Assembly (NCBI GenBank): GCA_963833425.1
Contig: CAWHXP010000008.1
Span: 212,578-276,577 of the forward strand
Source of the DNA: an uncultured Methanosarcinaceae archaeon
GTDB lineage: Archaea > Halobacteriota > Methanosarcinia > Methanosarcinales > Methanosarcinaceae
Direction: 5' to 3'
DNA length: 64,000 nucleotides
This document shows, in pieces, positions 5,371-34,716 of this stretch. Position 1 is the first letter of the stretch. Every line of letters begins with the position of its first letter. The position numbers and the translations under genes are program-made. Below the pieces are notes generated by a model that had not been told where the DNA came from, did not search any database, and was given only the letters and a program-made list of their open reading frames with translations.

Positions 5371-5455
5371 GCGAGGATTGCCCAGCTAGGTCAAAGGCGA
5401 TAGGTTCAGAGCCTATTCTCGTAGGAGTTCGTGCGTTCGAATCGCACTCCTCGCA
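5371..5455 (+). tRNA. tRNA-Leu (anticodon CAG), long variable arm, CCA not encoded
   Basis: Acceptor stem GCGAGGA/TCCTCGC + discriminator A; anticodon stem ATAGG/CCTAT with loop TT-CAG-AG; T arm GTGCG-TTCGAAT-CGCAC. Confidence 0.95.
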
Positions 5456-13599: not shown

Positions 13600-14378
13600 A
13601 GCTGAAAAGCTTCATAATTGTCTTTTTTGCCATTTCCAAAACCAGATATTTCACTATGGAATAATTTAGCTTTAAAGCTTTTTTTAATTTTTCAATATTC
13701 TTACAGCTCAAACAACCTAATTACAAATAAAAAATTTTGCCTCTCTGGGAATCTGTTTCCAAAAATATTCACTTGTTATTCCATTCCTTCAAGTTACAAG
13801 GACCATGAGCAGAAATGATGCCACATTCGCTCCTTTGACCGGGATACGATACGCATTGGAATTGGACAATAGCCATGTCTACGGCTAGATTAGCTATCTA
13901 AAAGTGTTGATGCTAAAGGCATAATATAGAGAATTTAGATGAATTCCCTTATTTTTAAGCGTTGGAGAATTTAAATTTTTTAACAATAATTTTTATTCAT
14001 GAAAATTGTTAATGATTTTGCCTTAAAGGAGAATACAACTGACTTCAGTCGGTTGCAATGAAACTTGCTGAAATTGGTTCTTACCATATAGTATATGTTC
14101 AAGTTTGATGTAAATTAATCATGATAGTTTGTATAATGGAAAGATTAATTCGGAAGAGCTTTAGACGATAAAATAATCTCCGAATTGGTGCTTCAATGAT
14201 TGAAATCAAGCCTATTAGAGTTTCTCCGGGGTAAACAGCAACATTTTCTGTTCTGTCAAACATTTCTGTCATCAAAATTTGACAGAAAAGACTGTAAGAG
14301 TTTGTAAAAAATCTGCAGAAATTTTTTAAGCGCTGGCGTTTAATCAAAAGTTCCTACAGATCTAAAAACGTTCGTAAC

Positions 14379-16091: not shown

Positions 16092-16181
16092 ATCTTTCCT
16101 TTTCCTAAGTTTTTTTAAGCTTTTGAGATATTTTTAATCAAGGCTTATTTCGTTTTAGCTGGAATTTCTTCATTCATAGTC

Positions 16182-17696
16182 TCAAGACATTTCTCCTGCT
16201 TTTCTAATTGACACATCAAATACCCTTGGCTTTTCCAGCAGGAGCCGTATTTCATTTAGGCTGCTTGCAATCTCGTAAATATCCGTGTTTTTGGAACGGT
16301 ATTTCATTAGGATTTCCTGGATGTCCTGCTCTGAAATCCAAATATTTTCTCTCAGGGTATTCTCAAGAGCTTGTTCTTCTTCTTGAATTTGTTTTTTAAA
16401 ATATTTCAGTCTCTCCTGGAAGTTTTCGAACTCTTTTTCATAGAGCTTCTTATCTCCATAGTTGAGGCTGATCTTGAATTCAAACCCGTATTTACTGTGG
16501 AGTTTTTCTGCAAGCAACTCAAAGCTCAGGGAACTGTTAAGATTGCTGTAATCGATCCCAAAGCTGTAGGTATGGGTCGGGAACTCGGTATGATGCTTCA
16601 GTAGATCAAGTGAGTTATCGAATGTCAGGTTCTTCTGGGTTTTTATTCCGGAAAATCTTGAGCTTTTCATACCACCTGTTGTTATCCTATCCTCTGCATA
16701 GCACTTATTACAAGTCAGAAGATCCGGGAGTTCCTGCTGCAGGCAACTGTAAATCGAGTTTTTCAGATCAAAAACATTCGATTTAAGTTTTCCAGTATCC
16801 GTTCCTCCTGAAACAACTCTGTCCAGGATAAGCTTCCTTATTGCTTCCTTCTGTTCAGGCACTTCCCAGAGCATATGCTGGAGTAGAACAGCAGTCATCC
16901 TGTTTACGCTGGCATGCCTATTTACGGCTGAAGCTACTCTGAGCACGTTTACAATCTTTTTCCAACGCCTGTCCGAAATGAAAATATTGGAGTTTCTAAG
17001 TTCCCTTCTTAGCTCTTTTATAATCGTCCGAACTTCAGGATCAAAAGTGAGATCTTTTGCTTTCTTCTGGGTTTTCTTTATATCCTCTATATTGAGTTTC
17101 ATTAAGGGCACGAAATCTTCCGTATTTTTGAAGATGAGATCTTCAAGGTTCTCTTCGTGCTGAATATAATCTACCCTGTACCTGAAAAGAAAACGGTCAT
17201 AAAGGGCTTCGAGACTCTCATCTTCTTCAGGTAGCTCGTTGGAAGCCCCGAAAACGGAGAAAAGAGGCACCTCAATAATCTCCTTGCCGTTGTGGTACTT
17301 TCTCTCGTTCAGCACGGTCAACAGGCTGTTTAAGATGGAGCTGTTTGCCTTGAAAATTTCGTCAAGAAGAGCGATATGGGCAGTCGGCAGATAACCATCT
17401 ATTCGTCTGCTGAACTCATCCCTTTCGAGTGCCTTTAGAGAAAGCGGTCCAAATACCTCTTCAGGCGTGGAAAAACGGGTCAAAAGATAATGGAAAAAAT
17501 TCCCTCCTTCGATAGTTTCGCAGATTTTGCTTGCAAGCAGAGTTTTTGCAGTTCCTGGAGGGCCAAGCAATAGGACGTGTTCGCTTGAAAGGAGTGCAAG
17601 AAGAGATCCATTAATTTCGGCATCCCTTTCTTTAAAATAACCTGCAAATTCCTGTTTGATACTGATGATGGTACTTTTTAAATCCAGAACTTTCAT
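16182..17696 (-). CDS. MoxR-family AAA+ ATPase, RavA-like
   Basis: Walker A GPPGTAKT; YLLTRFSTPEEVFGP; Walker B LLDEIFKANSSILNSLL; ASNELP; ALYDRF; SDRRW. Confidence 0.9.
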   Translation of the reverse strand: MKVLDLKSTIISIKQEFAGYFKERDAEINGSLLALLSSEHVLLLGPPGTAKTLLASKICETIEGGNFFHYLLTRFSTPEEVFGPLSLKALERDEFSRRIDGYLPTAHIALLDEIFKANSSILNSLLTVLNERKYHNGKEIIEVPLFSVFGASNELPEEDESLEALYDRFLFRYRVDYIQHEENLEDLIFKNTEDFVPLMKLNIEDIKKTQKKAKDLTFDPEVRTIIKELRRELRNSNIFISDRRWKKIVNVLRVASAVNRHASVNRMTAVLLQHMLWEVPEQKEAIRKLILDRVVSGGTDTGKLKSNVFDLKNSIYSCLQQELPDLLTCNKCYAEDRITTGGMKSSRFSGIKTQKNLTFDNSLDLLKHHTEFPTHTYSFGIDYSNLNSSLSFELLAEKLHSKYGFEFKISLNYGDKKLYEKEFENFQERLKYFKKQIQEEEQALENTLRENIWISEQDIQEILMKYRSKNTDIYEIASSLNEIRLLLEKPRVFDVSIRKAGEMS

Positions 17697-19205
17697 AAAT
17701 CCAAAACCTTTATAAATTTATCTTTTTCAGCATCTCGTCTTTACTTCGCTGGGAGGATTTTACAATAATGAGCCACGTAGACGATTAAAACAATATTAAA
17801 AATGAACTCACCATTTTTATGGGCCTTGCTTTACTTAATTTTTTCAAAAAAAAATTCTATTTTAGGGTACATGTTTCTGCGGGTTATGTCTTTTCCTGGT
17901 GATATATTTTACTGCCATTATATGCTAAAATAACCATCTTTTAGCAAATCTTATGTGCTCACCCAGGGTACACATATGATTAAAGTCTCTTCTAGTTTTG
18001 TCTCTTGCCATCCGAAGAAGTTCTGCAGAAAGAGCTTGATTACTACCGAGAGTGATTTGAATTATCTAGAAATAAGATTATTCTTGGTGACGAAAAAATA
18101 AAAATCAATATCCAGAATGAATCAATATTCGGAAGACTTTGCATGAATGATTTTAAGCGTGAAAAATATAGCCGGTAGATCCTTCTTTGTGGGGAAGAGG
18201 GGTAGGAAAAGTTTCTTTATATAAACTTTGACATCGAGATCTAAACCACAGGAGAAATGCTTATGGAATCATATATCTAATCCCAAATTCCTGAATGTGA
18301 TATTTTCGTCGATACCCTTTATAACCTCGAAATGTGACAGCGGCTTAACAAGATTTCCGTAAAAAAGAATTCATCTACTTCATGGAGCAGTTACCGGGTA
18401 TGATGGCCAGGTAACAACAATAATTCCTGGAAAAAAACTCTTTTACTACATTTTCCCGCATATTTCCGAAAAAGAAGTTTTTCTGGTTTTAGAGACAAAT
18501 ACAGGAATTAATAGTTTCATACAGTCGAATTAAGTAATTAAATTCCTGACAAGAAAAGGAAAACTTCTGGGAGGTCGCCTCCTATTCTTTAATGGATTTT
18601 TAAGAAATTTCAATGAAATTTCACTCTCAAAGTTAAACAATTGTCTGGTTTGGGATATTTTAATGAAATAAACAACAATAAATAAAAATAAATGAATATC
18701 TACCTTTGTTCAGGCATGTAAACCTTTATTCAAGTTCCCTTCCTGTTGATCAAGTTTTATGTATTCTCAGTAATACTATCCTATAAGGTACGTCACACCC
18801 AACATTCTGCAGATAGCCGCAAAAATTATATCCATTTTCGTAATGCTCAAGTAGTATAAAATTTGATCCCGCTTTAAGGAAGAATATTTGGCAAATCGGC
18901 AAATAAATGATACAAGTGTGTCATTTGCTGGATGTAGGTTTAAAGAAATAAATGTGAGCTTTGTTTTGTAAATCTAAACTCAGTGAGTACAAAAATCTCT
19001 CTGCATTTTAATTAAATTCATATTTTGAATCGTTTTTTTGGAATTGATCAAAATACATTAACACTACCCAAAAATGGCAAGTTTAGAATTATTAAATTGG
19101 TTTGCATTCTGATGAAAATCGATCTCGATATTATGAGAATGAAATTAATTTTGCAATGTCAAGTTAGATATACTATAAAAAAACATAATCAGTAGGTGAA
19201 GGTTC

Positions 19206-19721
19206 GTGATAAATCCTATCATAGGTCGGGTCTGGAAATTTGGAGACGATATTGATACTGATGTGATTATCCCAGGAAAATACCTGCGGACCAAGGAGAT
19301 GGAGGTTTTTGCAGCCCATGTAATGGAAGGTATCGATCCTGAATTCGCAAAAAGAGTGGAGCACGGAGATATTATTGTTGCAGGAACCAATTTCGGCTGT
19401 GGCTCATCAAGGGAACAAGCTCCACTTGCTCTGAAACATGCAGGAATAGCCTGCGTTATAGCAAAGTCCTTTGCAAGGATTTTTTTCAGAAATGCAATAA
19501 ATGTTGGATTGCCTCTCTTGGAAGCAGATATCGAATGTCAGGATGGGTGTGAGGTCAAAGTTGATCTGCTAAATGGTGAGATTGAAGTTTCCGGAAAAAG
19601 TATATTCAAAGGAAACAAACTGCCGGATTTCCTACTAGAAATACTGAATAATGGTGGACTTGTGGCTCATAGGAAGAAATTTCAGGTAAGTAAAGAGCAA
19701 CCAGATCTACGACCTATTTAA
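19206..19721 (+). CDS. LeuD-family dehydratase small subunit, probably methanogen homoaconitase small subunit (AksE/HacB)
   Basis: [28 protein letters not shown] and [16 protein letters not shown] motifs; the YLRT loop matches the homoaconitase type. Confidence 0.85.
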
Positions 19722-19756
19722 AAGAATTCGATAACCAATTAAATCGGTATCTATCC

Positions 19757-20614
19757 ATGATTTTTCCTGACGAATATAAACATGTGGCTGTGAAACGATT
19801 CACTAATTTGGCTGCTGAAAAGCTTATTTACTTTTTGACTGACTACCTCATCGTCGAAAAGGAAAAATATGATACCTACAATGCCAATTATGAGGTTTAT
19901 TATGTAAAAAAAAGCGGGGAAGGACTGTTCAGAAAGGTTGAATGCCTTGAACTTATTGCATCTGGAGAAGAAGTATACAAGTATAATAAGGAACTGAATA
20001 TAAAGAATCGTAGCCTTCTGATCGAAACTGCAGTAAACCTCTGCTCAGGCAAAGTCAATACTATAATTTTTACAGGCTTGGACAAACACGTTACATTTGT
20101 TCATAAACCTGATCCTTCCAGCATCCTTGATATAGAGGTACTTGACGTCGTTCCCCCCGAGCCTTCCTGGCTTTCCATGGTCGTAAGGAGGTTAGAAGCC
20201 AGTGGAATTTTTGGTGACCTACAAGTCCATTTTGTTGAAAAAGTAATTGACCTCCGATATTTTGAAGGGATAAATACTGTTTTTCCATGTAGTTCTTCTG
20301 GGCTCAAAGGAAAATGCCTGGATTCGGATATACTCACCGAAAACGGACACCTTCTTGTAGGGTGTGAGATCTCAAAGACCATTTTTGAACTGCGCTTTCC
20401 GGAACTTGAATATTCCTTCATAAATATATGCCCGTTAAAGTCCGAAATAGTGGCTCCATCAAAACCTTTCATTACGCGTTGCTGCAGGTCTGAAAATTCA
20501 GGACTTGTAAATATTTCCAACTTTGAAGGAGTTGTTGTCCACTGGGGAGATTCGGAATATCAAGTTGCTAAGGCCATTAAAAACCTTGTCCACACGATCA
20601 GGAATAATCAATAG
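19757..20614 (+). CDS. Conserved Cys-containing hypothetical protein of methanogens
   Basis: 285-aa ORF 35 nt downstream of the LeuD-like gene; Cys motifs FPC, VGC, NICP, RCCRSE and VHWG. Confidence 0.75.
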   Translation: MIFPDEYKHVAVKRFTNLAAEKLIYFLTDYLIVEKEKYDTYNANYEVYYVKKSGEGLFRKVECLELIASGEEVYKYNKELNIKNRSLLIETAVNLCSGKVNTIIFTGLDKHVTFVHKPDPSSILDIEVLDVVPPEPSWLSMVVRRLEASGIFGDLQVHFVEKVIDLRYFEGINTVFPCSSSGLKGKCLDSDILTENGHLLVGCEISKTIFELRFPELEYSFINICPLKSEIVAPSKPFITRCCRSENSGLVNISNFEGVVVHWGDSEYQVAKAIKNLVHTIRNNQ

Positions 20615-20851
20615 AAGTTAAAAACCGTCAATAAAAATTTAACAGTGTGTTTATGGTACCTAAGTTTGATAATATTCACTAATTTCTAATGAAAATCAAT
20701 GTTTTTTATCTCGAATTGGTTTGACAAAACTTATGAGTATAGGACTTAATCAAACCCCCTATGGTAGGTCCTGTTACTACTTGCTTTATCTTACCCTTAT
20801 CGGATCCAAAAAATATCTTAAATCGCTCCACATTCGTTCATTTTTGACTTG

Positions 20852-20976
20852 GAGCCTATTCGAAACGTCAATAGTGACATGCTGCAAAAGTTATAATTGA
20901 TCGACAACATTCAAGTGCCTATTCTAGTTGTGTATTGAAAAGTTGTAGCTGGTTACAAAAATTTTCGGAAAGGCTC
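20852..20976. mobile_element. ~125-bp MITE-like element (family A, copy 1)
   Basis: Imperfect terminal inverted repeats GAGCCTATTCGAAA / TTTCGGAAAGGCTC; a homologous inverted copy lies at 61773-61897. Confidence 0.7.
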
Positions 20977-21364
20977 TATGTTAAATCACTTTTATGCCAA
21001 AATCCTTCATTTTGCTTTAGCTAACACTTTGTGATTAGATGTTAACAGCATTTTGAAATCAGTATTTACATAGAACTACCAAGAATGTTTATACAGTCCA
21101 TTTGGAAATATAGCCCTGGCACGATTTTGTACTAAATTTTGCTTTTTAGTTTAATAGAATGATGCCTATGTTCCTGACCATGAATCGATTGTTCTAAGTT
21201 TTTGAAATGTTAATTTTTACTGGACTTACTATAATTTCTAATTTATGTCGCATTATTTGCAAGTATACTATAAAGGGAATAAAACTGAAAAGACAATTAG
21301 ATCGTAACTGAGAAATAAGAAAAACCTTAAAGAATTTTCCCTTGCTTTTTAATCAGAAAAGTAG

Positions 21365-22000
<636 letters not shown>

Positions 22001-22783
22001 CTACTATTTTTATATGCTACTAGATGATTCTTCACGCTCTATTAACTTAGTTTATTCTTTTTTATAATCAGGTAAGTTTTCCTTAAGTAATATACCATGA
22101 TGATCCGAATACTTCGGAACAAATTTTACACTACTCGTTGCAATTTGTGCTTTTAGCAAGTTCAAGTTCTTAATATTCCATATGAAATTTCCAGCATCTT
22201 TAGTGTTTCCAAAACTGAATCTCTCACTTCATGCAACAGCTATCGGATACTAATAATAAAAATTATTATCCAGAAAATGGCCAGAAATTCTCATAAATTA
22301 ACGGTTTCTAACTAGCTTATGGATCACTATACACATCATTTCCATATATAAATAAATCGGTCAGAAACACCTATGCCCTGTTATCCATATCCTCAACTGA
22401 TAGAGGAAAGTCCAGAACACATGATGCAGTGTTTGTGCTCATCCACCGTAATAGGTTCTTTAAATATTTCAAAATCCTTTTCTACATGGATAAAATGTGA
22501 AAGTAAAAAGCTTAATTGAAAAAGAAATCTTTTGGCAGCCCAGATAACCTTTTCCTGAACTCTTCTACCAATTATCAGGAGTAAGCTACTTTTGGGAACG
22601 AGGCGATGCATATCATCTCGTAAGCTCTATACTAGAGCAGCTTGAACAGAGTTTTTCACCTTGAGACTATAATTCATGAGCTCGCTGTGCCTAAGAGGGT
22701 GTCTAAATTTTTTGGGGACCGAAGTCGTGTAGACGCAACCAACGGACTTTATGGTTTTTAAAGGCTGACAATAGCCCGGTATT

Positions 22784-23923
22784 TCAAATCTTCTTGAGCA
22801 TCAGAGACATTATGCCTGGCCTGGAAGAGCCCATTGTCTGTGGCAAAAAAATTTCCGTTCCACAGGAACCGAACATTTCGTCGTTGAACCTTGTTGTTAT
22901 TTCGTCAAAAATCATCCTGTATGCGGTGCAATAAGGATCAATACCCCTTATTTCACCGCTTGTGGGAAGTATGGCATTGTATGGGCATCCTCCCCTACAG
23001 TATTTAATATGAGCGCATTTACCACATTCCTTGTCCACATATTCTTTAAACTGGTTCAAGCGTTCCCATGCATTGGATTGGGAAAGGTCTTCCATAGTCG
23101 GATGGTTATACACATTACCCATAATCCATTCATCCATGCCCACAAAGCGATAACACGGATATATATTTCCTTCAGGTCCCACTGCAAATGTGTCTCCCAT
23201 GCAATCAACATATGTGCAGACAGTTCCCCTTCCTGTAAATACACATTTACACAGATGATCGATATTCATAACTTCAATTCTACCTATATTTTCCAGATAT
23301 TTATCGAGAAGGTAAATTAAAAGTTCTCCATACTCTTCCGGATCAATAGTCCATTTTTTGGGATGTTCGCCTTTTAATGAAGGAAGGCATGGGTGCAATT
23401 TGAGAGTTAAACCTTGCTTAAGATAAAAATTGAAAATTTCTTCCTTGAACTTTACGGAATGAGAGGTAAAAGTGGTAATGAATCTAACATTAAGTCCATG
23501 AGCCCTTGCAATTTCGTATCCCATCATTGTTTTTGTGTAGTAGCCTGTACCCCTCTGAAAGTCATTGAGCTCTTCTGGGCCATCCAAACTAGAGCCTAGG
23601 GGAATATTGTATTCAGCAAAAATTTTAGCTATTTCCGGAGTGAGCTTCCATAGGTTTGTCTGTATCGCAAAAGCTATTTTCCGCGGGTTTAAACCTTTAA
23701 CTAATATCGGTAGGGCTTCCATATAAAATTTTGCTCCTGCCAGGAGAGGCTCCCCACCATGGAAAGTAAAAGTAACAGAATCTTCCCTAAAACTTTTGAG
23801 CCATTTAACAACTTCTGTTACCGTTTCAATGCTCATCATCGGAGATTTTTCCTCGGAACTCCAGCAGTAACCACAATTAGCAGGGCAACCAAGGGTAGGT
23901 ATAATCATTACGTGAAAAGGCAT
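22784..23923 (-). CDS. Radical SAM/SPASM enzyme, putative peptide-modifying, TIGR04083 (Mhun_1560)-like
   Basis: CxxxCxxC (CPANCGYC) after MPFHVMIIPTLG; FHGGEPLL; SPASM cysteines (VCTYVDC, IYPCYRF, CGKCAHIKYCRGGCP, DPYC). Confidence 0.88.
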   Translation of the reverse strand: MPFHVMIIPTLGCPANCGYCWSSEEKSPMMSIETVTEVVKWLKSFREDSVTFTFHGGEPLLAGAKFYMEALPILVKGLNPRKIAFAIQTNLWKLTPEIAKIFAEYNIPLGSSLDGPEELNDFQRGTGYYTKTMMGYEIARAHGLNVRFITTFTSHSVKFKEEIFNFYLKQGLTLKLHPCLPSLKGEHPKKWTIDPEEYGELLIYLLDKYLENIGRIEVMNIDHLCKCVFTGRGTVCTYVDCMGDTFAVGPEGNIYPCYRFVGMDEWIMGNVYNHPTMEDLSQSNAWERLNQFKEYVDKECGKCAHIKYCRGGCPYNAILPTSGEIRGIDPYCTAYRMIFDEITTRFNDEMFGSCGTEIFLPQTMGSSRPGIMSLMLKKI

Positions 23924-24130
23924 CTTTAAAGCTCCTTTTTTTCGGCTTCTTTAAATTATTAGTAGTTTTCTGAGTTAAGTACTTCACTGATTTTCATTCC
24001 CCAATAAACGAAGCCTAAGATTACCCTTTTATTGGTGAAAACACTTCTATACGTTTTTGCTATTCTATTAAGTGTTAATATAGTCCTAAATAAAAATCGA
24101 ATTCTTCGAATCGCAGATTCAAACAAATAA

Positions 24131-24497
24131 ATACCCATAACAGTAAGAACCATTCTTCTGTTTGCAATACTTACAATAATTACCAAGGGTGAAAATAGAA
24201 CTCATTTTGGATTCAGTTCTCATGGAGTCCTAGGCTACCGTACATCTATTCTTTTTACTCTTATCCTTGCCCACTCTTCCCTCAGAACTAGAATTTCCAT
24301 AAATGAGATTACTACCTTGAGTATTTCTATTTTATAATGTACCTAGCAATTTTGGTTGTTGCCCTGGACTCAATATTTTTTGCGGCAAATTGGCGTATCC
24401 CATTTATTGATGCAAAAGACAACAGTACATGAAGATCCTGTACTGGCCTGCTATTACAGGAATTATGTTATTGATTACATTCTTGAATTTTTATTGA
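24131..24497 (+). pseudogene. C-terminal fragment of a multi-pass membrane protein gene
   Basis: Frameshifted reading IPITVRTILLFAILTIITK...FGFSSHGVLGY...YLEYFYFIMYLAILVVALDSIFF...ILYWPAITGIMLLITFLNFY*; no 5' part or start codon. Confidence 0.55.
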
Positions 24498-24776
24498 TAG
24501 GTATTTGATACCTTAATTTTCTTCATTTCAATGCAGAAATGTGTTTTTTTAAACTTGTGGATTCATTCGTGAACTTCCCTACATTTATCTTTTTATTAAT
24601 CTAATAATATTAATATATAATATAAACATTATTAATGATTACTGCTCAGTAAAAAAGATAATTGCTTTTTTATTAGCAGGCCAGTTAAGTTTTGTTTCAC
24701 TACGAATCGATAAGCAATGATTCAAAGATAATGCCCAAAATATAATTTTATAAATATAATAAAATTGGTGATATAA

Positions 24777-25322
24777 ATGTTTGAACTCAGAATGAAAAAG
24801 GTAATTGCCATTTTACTGGCAGTACTATTTGTAACGTCGTTGTCAGCAGTTGCAGCTAGTGCCGGACGTGGCGGTATGCATGGCGGTCACCATGGCGGTC
24901 ACCATGGCGGTCACGGTTTCGGCGGTCGAGGCGGCTTTGGTGGCGGCTACGGCGGCTACGGCGGCTGGGGCGGCTACGGCGGCTGGGGCGGCTACGGCGG
25001 CTGGGGCGGCTACGGCGGCTGGGGCGGCTACGGCGGCTATGGATGTGGAGTACCCATTTGTGCACCACCTGTCCAACCTGTCATAACGTATGCTGATCAA
25101 GTTGTCTGCAAACCTGTCACAACAATGGAAAAACAAGTTGTTCAGGAACCTGTCACAACAATGGAAAAACAAATTGTCGAAGAACCTGTCACAACAATGG
25201 TCGAAAAAGAGGTCGAAGTACCTGTCACAAAAATGGTCGAAAAGTGTGTCGACGTGCCTGTCACAACAATGGTCCAAGACGTTGTCAAAGTACCTGTTTG
25301 TGGACTTGCCCCAGTTTGTTGA
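24777..25322 (+). CDS. Secreted low-complexity protein: signal peptide, GGH/GGY/GGW repeats and 12-aa Pro-Val repeats
   Basis: MKKVIAILLAVLFVTSLSAVAASA signal peptide; GGTGA RBS; in-frame 9/18-bp and 36-bp repeats. Confidence 0.85.
   Translation: MFELRMKKVIAILLAVLFVTSLSAVAASAGRGGMHGGHHGGHHGGHGFGGRGGFGGGYGGYGGWGGYGGWGGYGGWGGYGGWGGYGGYGCGVPICAPPVQPVITYADQVVCKPVTTMEKQVVQEPVTTMEKQIVEEPVTTMVEKEVEVPVTKMVEKCVDVPVTTMVQDVVKVPVCGLAPVC
24942..25040 (+). repeat. GC-rich coding tandem repeat (GGCGGCTAC/GGCGGCTGG units; 18-bp unit x4 plus flanking 9-bp units)
   Basis: Directly visible; encodes (GGYGGW)4. Confidence 0.95.
25077..25300 (+). repeat. 36-bp coding tandem repeat (CCTGTCACAACAATGG...) about 6 copies
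   Basis: Encodes PVTTMxxxxVxx 12-mers. Confidence 0.9.
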
Positions 25323-25405
25323 GTGTCGTAACCCTGAGTACCACTACACGACATAACAGCACGAAAGCTAACAAGAATTATAAAATAGTAGATTAAATAC
25401 AGATC

Positions 25406-25477
25406 AGAGTCTCACTGCTTAAGTAAGCTTGTTTGATCCGGTATAATACAATATCATTGACCGCAGAGTGAGACTCT
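25406..25477 (+). terminator. Long stem-loop downstream of the Gly-rich gene
   Basis: AGAGTCTCACT (25406-25416) is the exact reverse complement of AGTGAGACTCT (25467-25477); followed by a T-rich tract. Confidence 0.5.
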
Positions 25478-26073
25478 TAATTTTCTTATTATTTATATCT
25501 ATTTGACAGTATTTGCTTGAAAATACTATTGATTTTTCGGCTCAACACCTTATTTGAAACACATATGTAGACTTTTGCCTGTTTGTCCATTATTATTCGT
25601 TGAAAATTATATTACCTTTTAAGCGACTTTCATATTGAGAAAATAGATTGTATTTTTGTATTCATCTATAGAAAGGTGTCGAAGTTATTAATTTTTAAAC
25701 TTGAGTATATATGTATCTAGATCTGCCAATATATTCGATAAATAAATAAAAAAATTATAAGTTTGCAGATATTTTGCACTTTCTAGATATTTATATTCAA
25801 GCTTACTTACTCAAAAATCAATAGGAGCTACAGGGGAAAAAGGATCCGTTCTGGAAGTTTTGGTAGCTCCAGCTACAATTAAACCACATAATAAAAATAA
25901 GTAGGGAAGAACAATCTACTATAATAGTGTAAGCAAAATAAGGAAATCATTCATTTCATAAATCACCTAACTGGTTCTGGTGCAAAAATAATATTTCTGC
26001 AGTTTTATAATTATTCACTTTGTGCATCAGTTTTCCGGTGATGAGAATAATTAACTTTCCTAATTGTGAATGT

Positions 26074-26232
26074 TTACACTGATTTTTCAACAAAGTCAGA
26101 TTCTTTGGTGTCACTGCAAACAGCACGATATGTGATGCCAGCTATAATTGCTATTGCTCTTTCCAACGGATAGACACTTTTACTCATATATTCTAAAATT
26201 TCAGGATTTTTAGAACCTGTTTGTTTTGCCAT
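26074..26232 (-). CDS. Small hypothetical protein (52 aa) of the integrated element
   Basis: MAKQTGSKNPEILEYMSKSVYPLERAIAIIAGITYRAVCSDTKESDFVEKSV*; lies just downstream of the AbrB-like ORF. Confidence 0.4.
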   Translation of the reverse strand: MAKQTGSKNPEILEYMSKSVYPLERAIAIIAGITYRAVCSDTKESDFVEKSV

Positions 26233-26266
26233 GTGACAAAAAATTTATCGTTTGGACTCCTTGCGG

Positions 26267-26566
26267 TCATGCCAGCATCTCTCCATTGGTGTTAGGTGTT
26301 GAGCCCCTAGTTCCTTCAGAGTTTTGACAGGCCTGTGGAACTGGGGTTATTCTTAAGCTTCCGTCTTCAAACATTTCTATGTTCACACGGCTACTCTGAA
26401 CGAGTTTTGCGTTCTTTGCCCAAATCACAGGCAAAGGGCACATATAACTATATGCGGTTTTTTGAATTTTACGTTTACCGAATAAAATATTCATTTGAAT
26501 CATCATTAAAATATACACTTTATAACTATAAAAAGTATTTTTGTAGATTTTGAAAATAAAATACAT
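26267..26566 (-). CDS. AbrB/MazE/SpoVT-like small DNA-binding protein
   Basis: RKIQKTAYSYMCPLPVIWAKNAKL...VNIEMFEDGSLRITP swapped-hairpin pattern; real start probably an internal Met. Confidence 0.65.
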   Translation of the reverse strand: MYFIFKIYKNTFYSYKVYILMMIQMNILFGKRKIQKTAYSYMCPLPVIWAKNAKLVQSSRVNIEMFEDGSLRITPVPQACQNSEGTRGSTPNTNGEMLA

Positions 26567-26665
26567 ATATGTGATTAATTCTAAATTAATACATACTTAA
26601 TTTTACTAATTATTAAAAACTATTATGAAACATATACTTTAAATATTCTCAGATATATCATATAT

Positions 26666-27918
26666 ATGGCTCTAAAGGAAAGAGCATTACCTAAAAACGG
26701 ACCCAAAGACACTATTATAGAATTCATTTTAGAAAATGATGAGGCGGTAAAAGGGTCTCAAATTAGAGAACATTTAAAGAAAAAAAATCCAAAAGTGGAT
26801 CAGGGAAACGTTAATAGGGATTTACATGAGTTGCAGGGTGATTATGAATGTATCCAATTCGAAACTGGTAAAATAGGTCGGCGCAAGTATAATTTATGGA
26901 ATAAACAAAGATTGAACATTTAAAAAAAATTAGAGAATATTTTAAAAATATTAAATTAAACAAATACCAAAAATCCTTAGAAATAATCAGTGACAATCAT
27001 AGGGTTAGAGATGATCTAAATTTAATAGAAGATGATCTTGACAAAATATACCGTCTTCAGTTGTTCGCATCACTTTCCTTTTTTGATTTGTGCTTAAAAA
27101 ACGATATTGAAACTTTATATAACAAATCTGAAGAAATTTTGAATTTATCCAGAAGTGGTATTTACTGGAATGAAATATCATATATAGACCCACCTAAGGA
27201 TCTTTTATACTTAACTCATGGAAAAAATTGAAATGGAGCCTAATATTTGGCTGGATGTTTACAATGAATTCATAAACCATTCTCTGAAATCAGAGATTCA
27301 TCAAAAATCTTTTAAATTTTCTGAAGATCTCAAAATATCAGAAAAAATATTTAAGAAAATAATACTAGAAGCACTGACAAAAAAATATGAAGAACTAAAA
27401 GAAGAATCGTACAAAAAATAATTAAATATATTTCAAATAAGATAGCATCTGAGATAGTAACTAAAAAAATATCTGAAAATGAAAAGAAACATATCGGATA
27501 TATTAAAGGAACTAATGGAATACTAGTCGAACAACTAGAAAACATGACTAAAAAACTATCTGAGAATATATTTAACAGAGCCTTACTATTACTCGAAAAA
27601 TATTGGGAAATGCAACTTTTTGATATATTGCATATCCCATATTTAGATAATTTAAAAAAAGTAAGAAATTTTACGATGCTTTTCGACCACTGCTTTGAAG
27701 ACGATATTTTGGAAGGTAGTGTTTCTAGCGAAGAAATAGAATTTGTGAAAGCAGGACAAAAATTTTATGAGAGATTACATATTGACGACCAGAATTTGTC
27801 AGAAGGTTATGTACCAGAGTATTGTCCACAGGATGATTGTACTGATTGTCCAGCTAGTCATGAATGTGATTATAAAGAAATTTGTCTAAGTTTCTCAAAA
27901 AAATATGGGCTAAGATAA
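26666..27918 (+). pseudogene. Frameshifted winged-helix-type regulator/hypothetical gene of the integrated element
   Basis: ORF pieces 26666-26923, 27218-27421 and 27544-27918 join through frameshifts; N-terminal IIEFILEN...QIREHLKK...VNRDLHEL wHTH-like; Cys-rich C-terminus. Confidence 0.6.
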
Positions 27919-27959
27919 GAACTCTTTTAAACCAAAAGCCCATTTTACTAATATATCTA

Positions 27960-29096
27960 TCATTTCCCAGCTTTAAGCATCGTTTCCTTTAGTTTTGAGA
28001 TTTCTTCTAACTCTTGTTTTAAAGTATTTTTCATTTCTCTAATTTCGTCTAAATCTGCAAGTTGCATATAATCGGTTTTTACGGATTCTACAGTTTTTGA
28101 AGCTTCCTGAGTAAGCGGCAGTCCACATTTAAAACAAAATAAAGCATTTTCTGAATTTATTTCTTTGCACCGTGGGCATTTATTAAAAGTAAATTTTTTG
28201 TGAGATTCTTCAGTCTCGATTCCATGCAATTTAAGTATAGCATTATCCACATCTCGCCCTGACATATGCACATATACACTCGCCTTATTACTTGATTTAG
28301 TCCAACCTAAATATTCTTTTAAAAGTTGTTCAGGCAATTGTTCTGCTAAGTGAGTTGCTCTGGCATGTCTAAAAGCATGTGGGTAAACCCTTTTTTGTTG
28401 GATACCTGCTCTACTTGCTACTTTGTGTAGTTGATCTGCAAGTCCTACAAATGTGATAACTCCAAAAGGAGAATTAGTCGAACAGAATAAGTAAGCATCA
28501 AGATCATTTTTTAATGGATGGGTGTCAATCCATTGTTTAAGATAAGATGAAGCTAATACAAGCCTAACGCGTCGAAGTCCTGTTTTTCCTTTTTGGATAT
28601 TGAGGATTGCCCCATTCTCGTCAAAAGTCACATGTTTAAGTTGAACTGTTAGTAATTCCCCCCTTCTAGCTCCACTTTCATAAAAAGTAGCAATTATAGC
28701 CCGATCTCTGTTACTTCGACATGAATCAATTAATTTTTCAATTTCTTCGCGAGTCAAAATATCTTCGGGGATTTTCCCATTTTTTAGCGTCCGCAACTTT
28801 ATTACGGCTCCAAGATCACTATTAATAAAGGTCAAGAATTTTTTCAAAACAGTTCTAATTCGTTGCTGTGTACCAGGTGAGTATTTAACAGCCTTACCAG
28901 CCTTGATGTACGTATAGGCATTTATAAAATCCAGATAATCGTAAACATCGTCTGTAGTAAAATCCTTTAATTCTCGATTTCCACACCATTCTATGAACTT
29001 TATAAGTGTATATTCAGCAGTTGCAATTGTCTCTTCCGTCAGTCCATCTGCTTGACACTTCCTTATATAATCTTTTAAGATCGTTGAATTACTCAT
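27960..29096 (-). CDS. Tyrosine recombinase/integrase with C-terminal zinc ribbon
   Basis: Catalytic residues: ESGARRGEL (R), KGKTG (K), HAFRH (HxxR), LGW, VYVH (Y); CPRC...CFKC at C-terminus. Confidence 0.95.
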   Translation of the reverse strand: MSNSTILKDYIRKCQADGLTEETIATAEYTLIKFIEWCGNRELKDFTTDDVYDYLDFINAYTYIKAGKAVKYSPGTQQRIRTVLKKFLTFINSDLGAVIKLRTLKNGKIPEDILTREEIEKLIDSCRSNRDRAIIATFYESGARRGELLTVQLKHVTFDENGAILNIQKGKTGLRRVRLVLASSYLKQWIDTHPLKNDLDAYLFCSTNSPFGVITFVGLADQLHKVASRAGIQQKRVYPHAFRHARATHLAEQLPEQLLKEYLGWTKSSNKASVYVHMSGRDVDNAILKLHGIETEESHKKFTFNKCPRCKEINSENALFCFKCGLPLTQEASKTVESVKTDYMQLADLDEIREMKNTLKQELEEISKLKETMLKAGK

Positions 29097-29138
29097 ACTA
29101 ACTTAATAGAATTGACCCTAGATAAACAATATAGGTTT

Positions 29139-29213
29139 TTATGTTGGTTCAGCTCCAACAAAAAGATGTACATGATCACCATCAGTACCAACCACATCAA
29201 ATTCAAAGTACAT
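29139..29213 (-). pseudogene. tnpA: IS200/IS605-family TnpA (HUH transposase) fragment
   Basis: Translates MYFEFDVVGTDGDHVHLFVGAEPT*, containing the DHVHL HUH motif of Y1 transposases; truncated right after GAEP. Confidence 0.8.
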
Positions 29214-29320
29214 CTCGTAACCCGTTAAAGACTTCTCAACTGATAGGTTTAATAATATTTACAAATAAACTAAAATATAATTATAGAACTGGATGACAAA
29301 ATACTTCGGAGGATTCTGGC

Positions 29321-31117
29321 TTGGGAAATCATTATTTCATAATCACTGGAGAAGAAGCAGGACCTAGATCAAATAAGATGGGTGGAATATGGAATGTCAT
29401 TGATGGTGAGGCACATACCCTTGCTAAGCTTTTCAATTCTGGCACAGTGGTACCAAAGAATGATACGAAAATTCTTGTTGTAGGCCCTTATTATGGGCAT
29501 AGAGGTGCAGACTGGAACCGGGGTATGAATCGGATTACAAATATGGAAGAGTTTACCCCCCTAAATATCGATGCTGAACTCCAAAAAATTCTAGAATCCC
29601 TTGAGAAGTCAGGTATAAAGGTGTTTACAGGAGAAAAAAGGGTAGGAAAAATTGGAATAGTGTATCTGCAGTTTCAGACTTGCGATTTCGGGAAAATATC
29701 CACAACATACATGGGAAAGGAGATGACACTCGAAAACAAGGTCAAAGCTGAAGCATATGAAATCCTTGGACTTGATTCCTTGAAGTATGAGAGCATGTCA
29801 AATGGTTCAGAATACACTCATTATCTACTCCTTTCTTACGCAATTTCTGAGTTTGCTCGGTTTCTAGTAAGCTCAGTTTCGAAAATTGCTGAGACTGGAA
29901 AGGAAAATATAATCTCAAATAAAATTTTTATATCCTGTGCTGGTGTTTCCCTGCATTGCCATGAATTTGGGGTATTTTATGCGGCAGCCAGACTTAAAAA
30001 ACTTGGTATTCCGGTAGATAGTATTGCGACTCTGCATGCTACTCTTCCTGGAAGAGCTGCAGGATACAATTCCATCCTAAAAAGGAGGAATAATGACAGT
30101 ACGTGGTCTCCTGGAGTACCTGAAAATCTGGCTGCCCTCGAAGCTCTCGCCTTATATGCAGACACAGTTACTGCAGTAGGAGAGTCAACCTTGCAAGAAG
30201 CCAGGCTTTTTTACGGGATTAATGGGATTGTGATCCGAAATGGGATAACTATAGAATCCGACAAAATAGATTGGAATTTGAAAGAACATTGCCTTGAACA
30301 TATTCAAAAATTTCTTTCCGAAAACATGTACAAGTATCATGGAGGGGAAAGGATAAAACCCGAAAAAATAATCCCTATTTTTACAATTTCCCGCACAGAA
30401 GTGGAAAACAAAGGGTATCCTGAACTCCTTGATTCTCTTGTTGCTCTTGATCATATAATAAAGAACAGCATTTTGCAAGGGCATATGGAAGAAGGAATTA
30501 AGGTGGTCTGTTTTCTTATTACTGCAGAAGGTCCCAAGAAAAATCTGCCTGAAGGTTTTCCTATCAATATACCAAAAGAAGTACTTGCAGGAAACGAACT
30601 GAGGATTCAGCAGATGATCGAAGAAAAAGGGTTGGATTTTTCGAAAATGGGACGAGGAAAGTGTTCAGTCGCAGCAGTTCTATATCCTCAGATTCTCTCA
30701 ATATCCGATGGAGGACTTAATATGGGAGTTGGGGATTTTATGGCCGGCTGCTGTGCGGGCATCTTTCCCTCGCGTTATGATCCTTTCCTGCTTACTGGAC
30801 TTGAAGCCGGAAAGGAGGGGACTCCAAGCGTGGTCAGCCGGGTGTGTGGCTTCAGTGATGCCATAAAGGCTGTTGAGCCTTTGGTAGAAGGCTTAGGAGG
30901 TATAATAATCGTAGACAACGTCGATCTTTCCTATTATGAAGCAGTCCTTGATTATGCCCTCGCAGTTAGTTACTTTACGCAAAATTTCATAGATGATAGA
31001 GTTAAGTACAAACTTCTGTGTATGGAAGCATTCCTCCTCGCTAAGGACATGGATTGGGAAGAGCCTACAAAACAATATTATGAACTGATTAACAGTGGAG
31101 CACACTTTTGCAGGTAG
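29321..31117 (+). CDS. Glycogen synthase (GT3-like glycosyltransferase)
   Basis: N-terminal NKMGGIWNV, HCHEF, ATLHATLPGR, ISRTEVENKG and GIFPSRYDPFLLTGLE motifs; TTG start with GGAGG RBS. Confidence 0.85.
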   Translation: MGNHYFIITGEEAGPRSNKMGGIWNVIDGEAHTLAKLFNSGTVVPKNDTKILVVGPYYGHRGADWNRGMNRITNMEEFTPLNIDAELQKILESLEKSGIKVFTGEKRVGKIGIVYLQFQTCDFGKISTTYMGKEMTLENKVKAEAYEILGLDSLKYESMSNGSEYTHYLLLSYAISEFARFLVSSVSKIAETGKENIISNKIFISCAGVSLHCHEFGVFYAAARLKKLGIPVDSIATLHATLPGRAAGYNSILKRRNNDSTWSPGVPENLAALEALALYADTVTAVGESTLQEARLFYGINGIVIRNGITIESDKIDWNLKEHCLEHIQKFLSENMYKYHGGERIKPEKIIPIFTISRTEVENKGYPELLDSLVALDHIIKNSILQGHMEEGIKVVCFLITAEGPKKNLPEGFPINIPKEVLAGNELRIQQMIEEKGLDFSKMGRGKCSVAAVLYPQILSISDGGLNMGVGDFMAGCCAGIFPSRYDPFLLTGLEAGKEGTPSVVSRVCGFSDAIKAVEPLVEGLGGIIIVDNVDLSYYEAVLDYALAVSYFTQNFIDDRVKYKLLCMEAFLLAKDMDWEEPTKQYYELINSGAHFCR

Positions 31118-31190
31118 TAAAGCGAACCATCTGCTAAAAAAACAATTTTTTTGATATCAATTGGTTCAATACGTTAGAAGGTGATATAGC

Positions 31191-31340
31191 ATGGCAGGAT
31201 TTGAGTTAGACGATTCTGATGTGTATCGAAATACCAAAGTTTTCGATCAACTTTTAAAATTTGCAAAAGAGAATTGTGGAAACGATAAAGCAATTTTTGA
31301 ATATTTCGAAGATTTAGTCGGCATTGATCTTATCGGGTGA
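31191..31340 (+). CDS. Small acidic protein (49 aa)
   Basis: MAGFELDDSDVYRNTKVFDQLLKFAKENCGNDKAIFEYFEDLVGIDLIG* with GAAGGTGA RBS; below the ORF-track length cutoff. Confidence 0.45.
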   Translation: MAGFELDDSDVYRNTKVFDQLLKFAKENCGNDKAIFEYFEDLVGIDLIG

Positions 31341-32013
31341 TTCATATTGGACAAAGATAATGAAATTTCGGTAGGTATAGAACTCACTGAATCCAGTGAC
31401 CATAACTATGACGAAATCATTTTTTACGACAAAAATAGGAGGATATAACAGTATTTTCAGTATGAGAGAGTCCTAGTTGATTTATAACACACGTCCAATA
31501 TACAAAATCTTGGGTCCCTCTAATTTAGGATTCGCGTAGTTAAACTGAGAAATAAATAACTTAAAGTACTGAAAGTAAAATAGAAGATGACTTTGGAAAT
31601 GTTAAAGGGTTTAAAAAAAGAATTTAAATAGCATCATGCATAAAAGATCATTGTTGGCTCGTATATCAAATAAATTTGAGATGTATGGATAAAAAGCCTA
31701 CATATAAATTTATCCCCATATTAGCCAATATTTGTTGATATATATGGGAGGAAATAAGCTTAGGACCTAAGCAAAATAATTTAAGTATAATTATATATTC
31801 GTTTCATAATTCGTAAGGATAAAAATATACCTTTCAAGGTGCAGAGTAATTTGCAACCGCAAAAATAAATAGAATGATTGATATAGAGTCAGAAGCTCCA
31901 TTGCACCTTTTTTAGTATATATAACTCATTAAATTAAATATTCATTTGCACCTTCTGAAATAAGGTAACACGAGGTAGATTCAAGTGTCCATTTTTTTGA
32001 CATTGCAGTAAAT

Positions 32014-33218
32014 TTAGAGCATGTATTGTATATCGAAACACGCACTTGCATAAGTAAATATCATCTTTTGTAAATCTGATGCTTTGAGCTTAAACCGTAT
32101 CATTGAAGCGAAAATATTGATAGCTTCTTCAGCATGAAGACCCAGAATATGAGCTCCCATTATGCGGTCATTTGCTTCATCAAGAATTATCTTTGAAGCC
32201 GCAAATTCTATTCCTACTGCCTTTGTAGTTTGCCAGTTGCTCATATCCCGGAAATTTCTCCCTGAAGTTTTGCAACATAAGTAAGCTGCATATCCTCTAA
32301 TGCACAGTCCCCTCCTGCATAGATGCGGGTATTTGAGGTCCGCATGTGCTTATCGACTACAATAGCTCCCTTTTAGATCTTAACCCCTGCCTTTTCAAGG
32401 CATAAATCCTCTTCATCCGGAACACGGCTTGCCCAATGCACTACCATATCAGCTTGAAAGCTCTGAATTTCGGATCCAAATTCAGTTTTGACCAGCAAGC
32501 CGTCATTTTTTTTTCGACCGAAATTACTGGTTTGTTTGTAAGGATTTTGATCCCTACAGCTTCGGATGCTTTTGTAAGTAAATCCACCATATTAGAATCA
32601 AAGGATCTCAGGAGGCGTTCACTTCTATGCAAAATTGTAATATCAGAACCAGCTCTTCGCGCAATGTGAGCGAACTCTAGAGATATGTGACCACATCCAA
32701 TGAAAATAATTCTTTCAGGAAGTTTTTCGGCTTCCAGAAACTCCTCACTTGTGGTGATGCGTCCTTCCCCGGGAATGTTGAGTTTTCGCGGCTTTGAATC
32801 TGTAGCAAGAAAAATAAACTTCCCTTTAAGCTTGTCTTACCCCACCATTATAGAGTTATTGACTCTTAAAATGAGCTCTTCTGTGATATGTATCAATTCC
32901 TATGTCCAAATAATGCCTCTCGATTTTCCTAGGACATTCTTCCAGAAATGTCTTATTGAACATTATCAGAGAAGACCAGTTAATTTTTAACGAAGTTTGC
33001 GTGCCTGCCCCTTTCCCGATCAGTCGATTATTCCAATAGTTACTTCGGCGATAATCTGTGAACATCTTTTTTGTATCACATCTTCCAGGAGTAGAAATAC
33101 ACCCATATTTTCTCTAGTCAAGAATGGCTATTTTTAATCCAGAACGCGCAACTTTATCCACAAAAGCTCTGCCAGCCGTCCCGGATCCGATAACTACAAT
33201 ATCATAATCATTTTCCAT
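32014..33218 (-). pseudogene. Pyridine nucleotide-disulfide oxidoreductase (glutathione/mercuric reductase-like), frameshifted
   Basis: MENDYDIVVIGSGTAG start; ATDSKPRKLNIPG; GRVP; IYAGGDC; RIMGAHILGLHAEEAINIFA C-terminus; many stops and frameshifts. Confidence 0.85.
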
Positions 33219-33676
33219 AATTTCCCTCCCTTTTTATCTCCCCACTTCCTGAAAGACAGATTATAAGATTTATTGGATCGTAATACTTTTCATACTGATC
33301 AAGATGAAGTATATCCTGTATTCTGAAGGATATCAGAATTTGCTTGCGAACTAATTTATTACTTTTCGAAGACAAATCAGTTATAAGTTTCCAATCAAAA
33401 ATTTCTAAGAAATCTCTAAAAGAATTTTTGATTTATTTCATCCATGAAACTTTATTTAAGGGTGAAGGTGTAAGCAGCATACATGAATTTTTATAAACTT
33501 TGTTATAATAAAGATGCCTTGCATACATCCACACAAAAAAATGTCAGGTTCAAGATCGTTGCTGGAAGCAAGAACCATAAACAGTACTCAAAATTGCGCT
33601 GTAGAACCCCGCTACAAGCGAAAGGGTATTTCTCACTACTTTCCTGATATATTTTTTTACTGAAAGTCAATTTACA

Positions 33677-34716
33677 CTACTTTTCATTTTCTACTATATC
33701 TGTTGGACCAATCAATCTGGCTAACCATTTTGTGTCCTCAAAACTCTCAAGTAGGATCTTCAAAACAATTGTAAGAGGTATGGACAAAATCACACCTACT
33801 GCTCCAAGTACAAAATTCCAGTATATAAGAGAAAGAAACAAAATGCCTGGAGATAATTTCAGTCCTTTTCCTGCAAGCGAAGGAAATACTACATTTTCCG
33901 CAAGCATACTGACAATCAATACAACGACAATAACTGCAAGAGCACCTATAGGCCCATACTTAAACAGTGCAAGCATTGTGGGTGGAATAGAAGCCAGAAC
34001 GAGACCAATGTAGGGTAATATAGCTGAGCAGGAATATGAGAACTCCCCAGAGAATCGCAAAGTCGATGTCTCCTACAAGAAGAGCAATGGTAATTCCAAC
34101 AGATGTGATAAGGTTTGTTTCGGCCCTTATAGCCAAAAAACCTACCAGATTTTTGTCAAATTTACTTATGCTCATCTGAAGCTTGGATTGAGTTTCAAAT
34201 TTTGAAGTTATTTTTTTAGGAGTATTGGCAGCGTCTATCAACAAGAACGCTGTTGCAAGTATTATAATTCCAGCTGTTGTACCAATATTCACAAGTCCAC
34301 TAATACTGCTTCTCATAAGAGAGATCAGGATTGATGTAATACTACGTAAAGTTGAATTCAAGGAAATGTACTCTTGTGAAGGAACATAACGTGTAAAAGT
34401 ATCTATGAACCCCATTAAATTAGTTTGGTAGATAGGGGTCTGGTTTCCAAATTGGATTGCACCTTTTATAACAATCACACTGAAAATCGCGACCATGAAA
34501 GCAAATAAAAGAATTACTAGAAGAATGCTCAGTCCACCTGGTATCCCCTTTTTTTTGAGCAAGAAGATAAGTGGGCTAAAGATCAAAGCAGCAAAAATGG
34601 AGAAAAAAAATGGGTGTGAGGATAGGAGCTAGCTCCCGCATTCCAAGCGTCAGGATTACAGCAAAAGTACTGTATACTAAAATCCTACCAGGTATAGAAT
34701 TGCTATTAAAATTCAT
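33677..34716 (-). pseudogene. AI-2E family transporter, frameshifted paralog
   Basis: ORF pieces 33960-34586 and 33677-34060 are highly similar to the intact gene at 41797-42879; frameshifts near 34610 and 34020. Confidence 0.88.

Follow-up and report, generated by a model that had tools for sequence, protein, structure and literature searches.

A Xer-like integrase of mobile elements in Methanosarcinaceae very probably uses a palindrome in the IS200/IS605 transposase gene tnpA as its attachment site

Positions 29126-29207 of the window, the whole stretch of 64,000 nucleotides that was analysed, are very probably a fossil attL-type junction of a mobile element whose Xer-like integrase would use a palindrome in the IS200/IS605 transposase gene tnpA as its attB. 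The window is G000:C8:212578-276577, and genome G000 has 4.07 Mb in 21 contigs and is 80% complete. The element copy in the window is a decayed remnant of about 3 kb that keeps the attL-type junction and an intact integrase ORF and has lost its far end. We base our reading on the anatomy of the junction, its recurrence at other loci, the reciprocal junctions, the equal 7-bp segments at the two ends of elements, an empty site, and a target that goes with one clade of the integrase. The features of the junction region are as follows.

27960-29096, minus strand: intact tyrosine integrase gene (ORF, 378 aa) with a Xer-like catalytic domain, an N-terminal SAM-like domain and a C-terminal zinc ribbon (Pfam)
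29097-29125, minus strand: element-side spacer from the integrase start to the arm, conserved in the alignment of 6 copies
29126-29149, no strand assigned: integrase-proximal 24-bp arm (P' arm), the inverted repeat of the far-end arm in complete elements (arm search and alignment)
29150-29156: putative 7-bp overlap (crossover), GGAGCTG on the tnpA coding strand, the Gly-Ala-Glu codons
29157-29207, minus strand: remnant of the tnpA 5' half, HUH-motif region, ...FEFDVVGTDGDHVHLFV, cut again at about 29207-29213
29142-29160, no strand assigned: 6-7-6 palindrome TGTTGG-TTCAGCT-CCAACA of the original prediction, overlapping the core and 2 bp out of register with it

The integrase matches PF00589 at 8.7e-21 (74.9 bits; cut-off 27.1), which places it in the tyrosine recombinase family, and it also matches PF13495 and zinc-ribbon families (Pfam). 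The closest solved structure is 4a8e, a Pyrococcus XerC-like recombinase, with which the Arg, H-x-x-R-H and Tyr positions align (GARRGEL with GLRVSEL, HAFRHARATH with HQLRHSFATH, and VYVH with IYTK); the aligned Arg, His-x-x-Arg, His/Trp and Tyr nucleophile we take to be the catalytic residues of tyrosine recombinases. Against the NCBIfam model for archaeal XerA (NF040815 equivalog) the protein scored 120.6 bits, below the cut-off of 220. There are six integrase matches in G000, compared with the single chromosomal copy expected of a host XerA; a single genome can have as many as 6 copies of the gene, all of them within mobile DNA. Nor is the integrase of the suicidal SSV type, in which attP lies inside the integrase gene and the gene is split, since its ORF is unbroken and 29 bp separate it from the arm. 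No tRNA gene was found in positions 20000-34000 of the window.

The original prediction had started from the palindrome TGTTGG-TTCAGCT-CCAACA, which indeed lies at 29142-29160, 46 bp upstream of the integrase start codon (29096). Its assignment of the palindrome to the end of a TnpA fragment also proved right: the minus-strand frame at the junction reads ...YFEFDVVGTDGDHVHLFVGAEPT* with the stop codon inside the palindrome (translation), and 29144-29207 is homologous to IS200-type tnpA remnants of G000 (blastn). The best match has 90.6% identity over 64 bp at C8:179994-180057, a remnant whose region matches PF01797 at 7.5e-19. The window fragment, too short alone for the PF01797 HMM, was assigned to IS200/IS605 tnpA (Y1_Tnp, PF01797) via this 90.6%-identical remnant, and its end ...HVHLFVGAEP includes the HUH motif. 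By itself the palindrome is not above chance, with 31 perfect 6+7+6 palindromes observed in the window against 15.6 expected under uniform composition, and its significance comes from the comparison with other copies.

When the two ends of a complete element are joined, the attP core reads ACAATACAGGTATTTATGGTAGTT / GGTTCTG / AACCAACATAAATACCTATATTGT, that is, two 24-bp near-perfect inverted arms round 7 bp. The functional core is likely formed by these arms and the 7-bp overlap, and not by the 6-7-6 palindrome. From the core site as first proposed, the inverted arms and the 7-bp overlap next to the integrase gene stood; the 6-7-6 register, being 2 bp off, did not, and the arms are actually 24 bp long. 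We set the register in this way because the long arms are symmetric without gaps and because the 30 far ends are conserved up to ...GTAGTT and no further. The left edge of the overlap is fixed because a sister element (G003:C33) has TCCATAA at both ends and the preceding base differs. We infer that cleavage takes place at the overlap edges. The tnpA site itself is an imperfect palindrome (TTTTGTT-GGAGCTG-A[A/G]CCAAA), and the tnpA variants in G000 read GGAGCTG, GGTGCTG, GGTTCTG or GTTGCTG at the overlap position. The overlap is GGAGCTG in the window copy (W) and GGTTCTG in the complete elements on contigs C18 and C21, a difference that counts against our explanation.

Further integrase copies with 89-93% nucleotide identity were found at C8:399327-400592 (C8b, frameshifted) and on contigs C1, C6, C18 and C21 (tblastn, blastn). 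Those on C1, C6 and C18 share 98.5-99.8% identity across kilobases, flank included, and were treated as one locus or as strain variants of one, so that there are fewer independent events than copies. In the alignment of 6 copies, the element-side sequence is the same up to one base and is then followed by tnpA; W, C8b, the C18/C6/C1 locus and C21 thus give four loci in G000 at which the arm joins tnpA at the same base. With the free tnpA remnant C8:179700-180300 as the query, five blastn matches stopped near the breakpoint and two began close to it, at query positions 292 and 320. C8:425255-425503 (Y1_Tnp HMM 39-120) was considered as the partner of C8b and rejected, being a different, whole but degenerate tnpA.

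The reciprocal tnpA 3' half, which should lie at the other end of the element, was seen as well. Far ends in G000 were collected with an 18-nt arm motif (at most 3 mismatches) followed by alignment. The conserved element end is joined to a tnpA 3' half (...VGSELNYFFTIVMQIIKSTTAR) at C18:17844-17975 and C5:145942, and the far-end arm with a tnpA 3' half is present at four loci in G000 (C18:17844, C21:13355, C5:145942 and C8:326431), the other 8 of the 12 far ends lying outside tnpA. The complete element on C18 spans 765-17866 (17.1 kb) and that on C21 about 13355-26680 (13.3 kb; the contig stops inside the junction). Both carry GGTTCTG at both ends, within a 13-bp repeat GTTGGTTCTGAAC. Identical end segments, as expected of a site-specific integrative element, were found in C18 and C21 (GGTTCTG) and in G003:C33 (TCCATAA). 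A 2.1-kb remnant at C8:547966-550070 has different 7-mers at its two ends and counts against our explanation.

For the C18/C6 locus, the empty target site is preserved in related genomes. The flank past the tnpA 3' half (from C18) and the flank past the 5' half (from C6) have orthologues of 91-92% identity in related MAGs, and the two lie about 0.5 kb apart in G004 (contig C113) and G003 (C131). In G004, the left junction of G000 corresponds to positions 18-500 and the right one to 482-915 in the alignment; the 19 bp covered by both are the core. Between the flanks, G004 has an uninterrupted tnpA remnant, ...CATCTTTTCATT / GGTGCTG / AACTAAGATATTC. Since tnpA is uninterrupted at the orthologous locus, the 17.1-kb element entered a tnpA copy that was already in place and predates the split of the species. 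The G004 copy needs a frameshift for read-through (by eye) and is a fossil. Contigs in the public runs X1, X3 and X4 join C18-locus positions 731-764 to 17865-17893, giving an uninterrupted tnpA, and the letters between both sides in run X4 match the empty site of G004. These joins were not counted as evidence, as tnpA is multicopy, the likeness threshold was low (four public runs compared at 85% likeness, with a best share of words of 0.18), and the contigs may stem from other copies or species.

A scan of one genome per species gave 19 loci in seven Methanosarcinaceae/Methanosarcina MAG assemblies, and 7 of the 19 have the tnpA 5' half at the identical position. The expectation that tnpA genes broken at GAEP recur beside homologous integrases was thus borne out both in G000 (four loci) and in other MAGs. 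The loci are listed below.

L026, L027, L028, L036 and L037 (G001), L029 and L030 (G002): tnpA 5' half at the identical position
L031, L032, L035 and L044: recognisable arm beside non-tnpA DNA
L033 and L034: recognisable arm beside non-tnpA DNA (by eye)
L038-L043: no recognisable arm, 47-58% identical or partial

A 311-bp far end had 25-34 matches in each of G001-G004 and none in G005. The best 30 of more than 116 far ends (G000-G004) were inspected; in 7 of them the 3' half of tnpA follows at once, and in 21 the flank is of another kind, with (A/T)AC 7 bp away from the arm. Directly behind the far ends L059 and L067 there are Y1_Tnp HMM matches from position 53.

L052, L059, L062, L063, L067, L070 and L077: far ends running into a tnpA 3' half (by eye)
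L050 and L056: far ends running partly into a tnpA 3' half (by eye)

The integrase clade is narrow, and 80 other genomes of the same family (an even sample from 16 genera) had no integrase match at E <= 1e-120. All 12 tnpA-linked integrase sequences, which include the redundant C6/C18 pair and the identical L026-L028, fall in one clade, and five other sequences fall outside it (FastTree); the tnpA-only node has a support of 0.345, and the next node out, which adds L031, one of 0.973. G000 contains 911 GTT-N7-AAC sites, and 39 tnpA remnants span the site uninterrupted. Because the loci with close integrases are in tnpA in 4 of 4 cases in G000 (and in all 7 in G001 and G002), as against 39 of 911 sites, which is well beyond chance, there is a true site preference and not a mere effect of target abundance. 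From these comparisons, tnpA is the target of one integrase clade only, with sister integrases that have the same arms using other palindromic sites; in the wider family, the choice of target seems linked to the clade of the integrase and to the sequence of the overlap. The sister element on G003:C33 (about 111.15-131.29 kb; L114, L116, L054) is about 20 kb long and sits in a non-tnpA site with the same arms. The overlap TCCATAA is the same at its two ends, and the attB reconstructed for it contains perfect 8-bp inverted arms, AATTTGTT and AACAAATT. For the L031 element, G003:C36:2567 was rejected as the far end since its overlap GATACAG differs; the L031 overlap TAAAGTA recurs on another contig at L051, and a pairing of the two is plausible. 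Some far ends share similar non-tnpA flanks (L053 and L057 in G004, L055 in G001 and L069 in G003, L066 and L071 in G002), which may reflect a repeated target of sister elements or duplicated or orthologous insertions.

Part of this evidence would also fit a loose specificity of the Tn916 kind, by which the integrase takes any ...GTT-N7-AAC... palindrome, tolerates unlike overlaps and meets tnpA frequently through its copy number. The 8 of 12 far ends in G000 and 21 of 30 inspected in relatives that are not in tnpA, the non-tnpA flanks that share little past the (A/T)AC 7 bp from the arm, the 25-34 far ends per genome in four relatives, and the unlike 7-mers of remnant C8:547966-550070 all point this way. 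We nevertheless consider it unlikely. The same 7 bp are found at both ends in three of three complete elements (C18, C21 and G003:C33), which is not the Tn916 pattern; the target type follows the integrase clade; the 4 + 7 close-clade loci are all in tnpA, though tnpA makes up at most 39 of the 911 GTT-N7-AAC sites; and the non-tnpA sites that were examined are good palindromes matched to their element.

That all junctions lie at one position, with the flanking tnpA fragments oriented as one interrupted gene, is also what a single ancestral event would leave if tnpA pieces travelled with the element, as a composite made once and spread by segmental duplication or by the IS200 machinery. What makes this very improbable is the sequence on the two sides of the junction. 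L026, L027 and L028 (G001) are 100% identical over 1200 bp from the arm through the integrase gene, and their pairwise identities on the tnpA side (200 bp) are 76.7%, 78.8% and 95.5%; having identical integrase genes, the three stand for fewer independent events than rows. For W and C6 the identity is 90.4% on the side of the element and, over 51 bp, 78.4% on that of tnpA; for C8b and C6 the two values are 90.9% and 71.5%; and W and C8b, 94.8% identical on the element side, have no alignable match on the tnpA side. Such a drop in identity at the junction rules out that a tnpA piece moved along with the element or that the block was duplicated. Each tnpA-linked locus (4 in G000, 7 in G001 and G002) lies beside a different tnpA copy, the W fragment resembles a free tnpA copy more closely than it does the copies at the other junctions, and the empty site in G003 and G004 puts tnpA there before the element. 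The null that accompanied the original prediction, by which an unrelated IS200 scar stands in front of an integrase gene by chance, could draw on a genome full of tnpA debris (63 blastn matches) and on the abundance of 6-7-6 palindromes (31 in the window). It is refuted by the recurrence of the junction, which is base-exact at at least 11 loci in three genomes, and the reciprocal halves and the empty site also speak against it, so that we leave it almost no weight. Taken together, the recurrent junctions, the reciprocal halves and the empty orthologous site in two related species support the initial idea of a multicopy transposase gene as the target of this integrase.

We propose that the attB of the tnpA-targeting element would be, on the tnpA coding strand, TTTTTGTT / GGAGCTG / A(A/G)CCAAAG, which covers the codons F-V-G-A-E-P-K just past the HUH motif. 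The attP of the free element would consist of two 24-bp near-perfect inverted arms, ACAATAYAGGTATTTATGGTAGTT and its mirror AACYAACATAAATACCTATATTGT, round the 7-bp overlap. Strand exchange at the overlap edges would split tnpA and yield two products, one with the order tnpA 5' half, overlap, arm and integrase gene, and the other with the arm, overlap and tnpA 3' half. The dispersed tnpA remnants, with dozens of copies, would provide many neutral landing pads and hence allow several element copies per genome. The window copy would have decayed later, leaving the integrase gene and about 1.8 kb of broken genes with the far end gone, and its tnpA 5' half would have been cut by a rearrangement at about 29207-29213. 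This integrase would be the catalyst, the element would pass through a circular intermediate, and it may be active at present.

The targets are mostly tnpA copies that are already dead. In G000, 24 Y1_Tnp matches were found, all but one short one with stop codons, and the best two tnpA copies are visibly degenerate. Across G001-G004 there are 16-32 Y1_Tnp matches per genome at E <= 1e-8, and a full-length open tnpA copy is present once each in G002, G003 and G004. The element thus uses tnpA fossils as a multicopy safe harbour more than it inactivates insertion sequences. The suggestion that it parasitises and inactivates IS200/IS605 elements is therefore overstated: the targets are mostly degenerate, the orthologue with the empty site is frameshifted, and inactivation of a live copy is possible and was not seen in these genomes.

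The C18 element encodes the integrase, a wHTH protein, an AbrB/MazE-type protein (PF04014), a 190-aa protein, a family-A DNA polymerase (PF00476; phrog_17), a second small wHTH-like ORF and a homologue of the small terminase (phrog_4102, 4.9e-25), followed by two broken oleate-hydratase (MCRA family) genes and a DUF1269 gene. The MCRA-family copies (9402-13352) are oppositely oriented and broken, and these and the DUF1269 gene are cargo or later insertions. The module common to C18 and C21 is about 6.9 kb long and comprises the integrase gene, the wHTH and AbrB-type regulators, the family-A DNA polymerase and the small-terminase homologue. No capsid genes were recognised and no conjugation genes were seen in the C18 element, which looks like a small provirus remnant or a satellite-like island. 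As for free forms, an exact-pattern scan of viral contigs gave 0 matches to the free attP, and no integrase relative was found in them. Eleven attP-pattern matches in metagenome contigs were dismissed as chance, as none had integrase homology or extended arms. One contig of run X1 joins C18-locus position 7618, just past the small-terminase gene, back to 766, the first bases of the element; this join hints at a form, circular or tandem, that would measure about 6.85 kb and have the integrase-to-terminase module only. Right behind the polymerase gene, L045 (G000:C18) has at 6289-6360 an arm-like 18-mer with 2 mismatches followed by two direct repeats of about 22 bp, which could be an origin, iterons or an accessory integrase site.

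The integrase resembles the XerA/XerC/XerD dimer resolvases (4a8e, 5hxy, 1a0p) in its catalytic fold and residues. The Xer/dif core site has two inverted binding arms round a central region of 6-8 bp and is similar to the core described here. Unlike Xer at dif, the integrase falls below the XerA cut-off, is multicopy, and joins unlike partners (attP and attB) instead of two dif sites. Other elements are known to home in on mobile DNA: the 'res hunters' Tn5053/Tn402, and IS4321/IS5075, which insert in the terminal repeats of the Tn21 family, are bacterial and use DDE or DEDD transposases. With them our elements share the strategy of exploiting a conserved stretch of a second selfish element as a landing site that is safe and repeated; they differ in having a tyrosine integrase, in targeting the coding sequence of an HUH transposase, and in being archaeal. 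Tn916 and CTnDOT, which move by tyrosine recombinases, have several copies and target sites, with weak dyad targets round a 6-7-bp spacer and unlike coupling sequences. The elements described here also have several copies and target sites per genome, but their overlaps are identical at both ends of three complete elements, and the C18 element has no conjugation genes. The module of about 6.9 kb in C18 and C21 is like phage-inducible islands and other satellites in combining an integrase, a regulator, a replication gene and a small terminase; unlike for those islands, there is no known helper virus, capsid-redirecting gene or induction, and the resemblance is a lead only.

A discussion passage of PMC6563490 states that phage-inducible islands had gone undetected in archaea. 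As targets of archaeal tyrosine integrases, section 19 of the review PMC8371274 names tRNA genes along with intergenic regions and a small number of single-copy protein genes; no transposase is among them. A full-text literature search, which covered main-text passages of PMC4158269, PMC11437467 and PMC6563490, gave no report of tnpA as the attB of an integrase. With the classical non-suicidal archaeal and phage integrases (psiM100 and SNJ2-type, as reviewed in PMC8371274), the present one shares a position at the element edge, conservative integration, short identical end segments and an intact integrase gene; it is set apart from them by the multicopy IS transposase-gene target, the unusually long 24-bp arms, and a Xer-like protein with a C-terminal zinc ribbon. 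The mechanism would be ordinary, namely conservative site-specific recombination by a tyrosine integrase, and the target class would be unusual and is apparently unreported.

The elements form a small family in peat-soil methanogens (Methanosarcinaceae) and add an extra layer to the nesting of mobile elements in archaea. Archaeal viruses and plasmids are known for integrases that go for tRNA genes and, in rare cases, for single-copy genes or intergenic DNA; in the present family the attachment site would lie within the transposase gene of a second mobile element. A site-specific element can reach many copies without harm to the host because its target, tnpA, is repeated, dispensable, and conserved by the selection of the insertion sequence itself. 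In annotation, tnpA 'fragments' beside integrase genes in these genomes should be read as att junctions and not as random debris. The long arms, the 7-bp overlap and its natural variants make the core testable, and it could serve for multi-site integration in Methanosarcina genetics. A wider idea, which we offer tentatively and regard as possible rather than probable, is that these are archaeal satellite-like elements whose Xer-like integrase is retargeted by changing the 7-bp overlap between constant 24-bp arms. One clade would have specialised on the tnpA coding sequence and would thereby spread in a transposon-like manner to dozens of ends per genome, and other clades would use other palindromes. 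If true, methanogens would have a natural integration system that is reprogrammable and multicopy and works as a safe harbour, and the elements might be the first counterpart of phage-inducible islands in archaea.

In the window, the rest of the element beyond the integrase gene is decayed. Its recognisable parts, and a separate far end of the same family, are as follows.

26149-27959, no strand assigned: decayed rest of the element (blastn to C8b); homology to the other copies stops near 26149
26267-26566, minus strand: AbrB/MazE-like ORF (ORF99; blastp against the C18 82-aa protein, 7e-14)
26666-26923 and 27544-27918, plus strand: pieces of a wHTH-type protein (ORF85 and ORF124; blastp against the C8b 396-aa protein, 8e-9 and 4e-17)
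58921-59585, plus strand: separate solo far end from this family of elements; it terminates with ...GGTAGTT at 59585 and has a non-tnpA flank

The 82-aa protein of C18 matches PF04014, and the full wHTH-type protein has 396 aa in the copy at C8:399-406k (C8b). No far-end arm within 6 mismatches was found anywhere in positions 20001-29100 of the window, and the weak candidate for the reciprocal junction at 25858-25873 was rejected on this ground. Homology to tnpA stops at 29207 in the window; in C8b and C18/C6 it continues towards the tnpA N-terminus. G001-G004 align with the window rightwards from 29219 or 29241 (a glycogen-synthase-like gene lies at 29321-31117), and their DNA upstream of 29219 is unrelated to the window and matches contig C11 of G000. 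This break in synteny at about 29207-29219 shows that the window locus was rearranged at the cut end of the tnpA fragment, and because synteny with the relatives breaks at about 29213-29219, the locus offers no empty-site comparison of its own.

The solo far end at 58921-59585 shares 80% identity with the terminal 670 bp of the elements on C18 and C21 (arm match C8:272139), and a homologue of the small-terminase region lies at 60906-61699 in the opposite orientation. Left of the remnant, the repeats 25559-25675 and 25973-26107 have dozens of copies with 70-87% identity across the genome and a MITE-like look (blastn); the latter, about 135 bp long, lies about 40 bp from the homology end of the remnant near 26149. 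A further repeat, 24131-24504, has 5-6 copies at about 80% identity (blastn). The ORF at 24777-25322 encodes 181 aa with a signal-like start, a GGYGGW run and repeated PVTTMEKQ/VE units; its sole Pfam match is a weak keratin-head hit, and its 5' half matches many loci of the genome (blastn).
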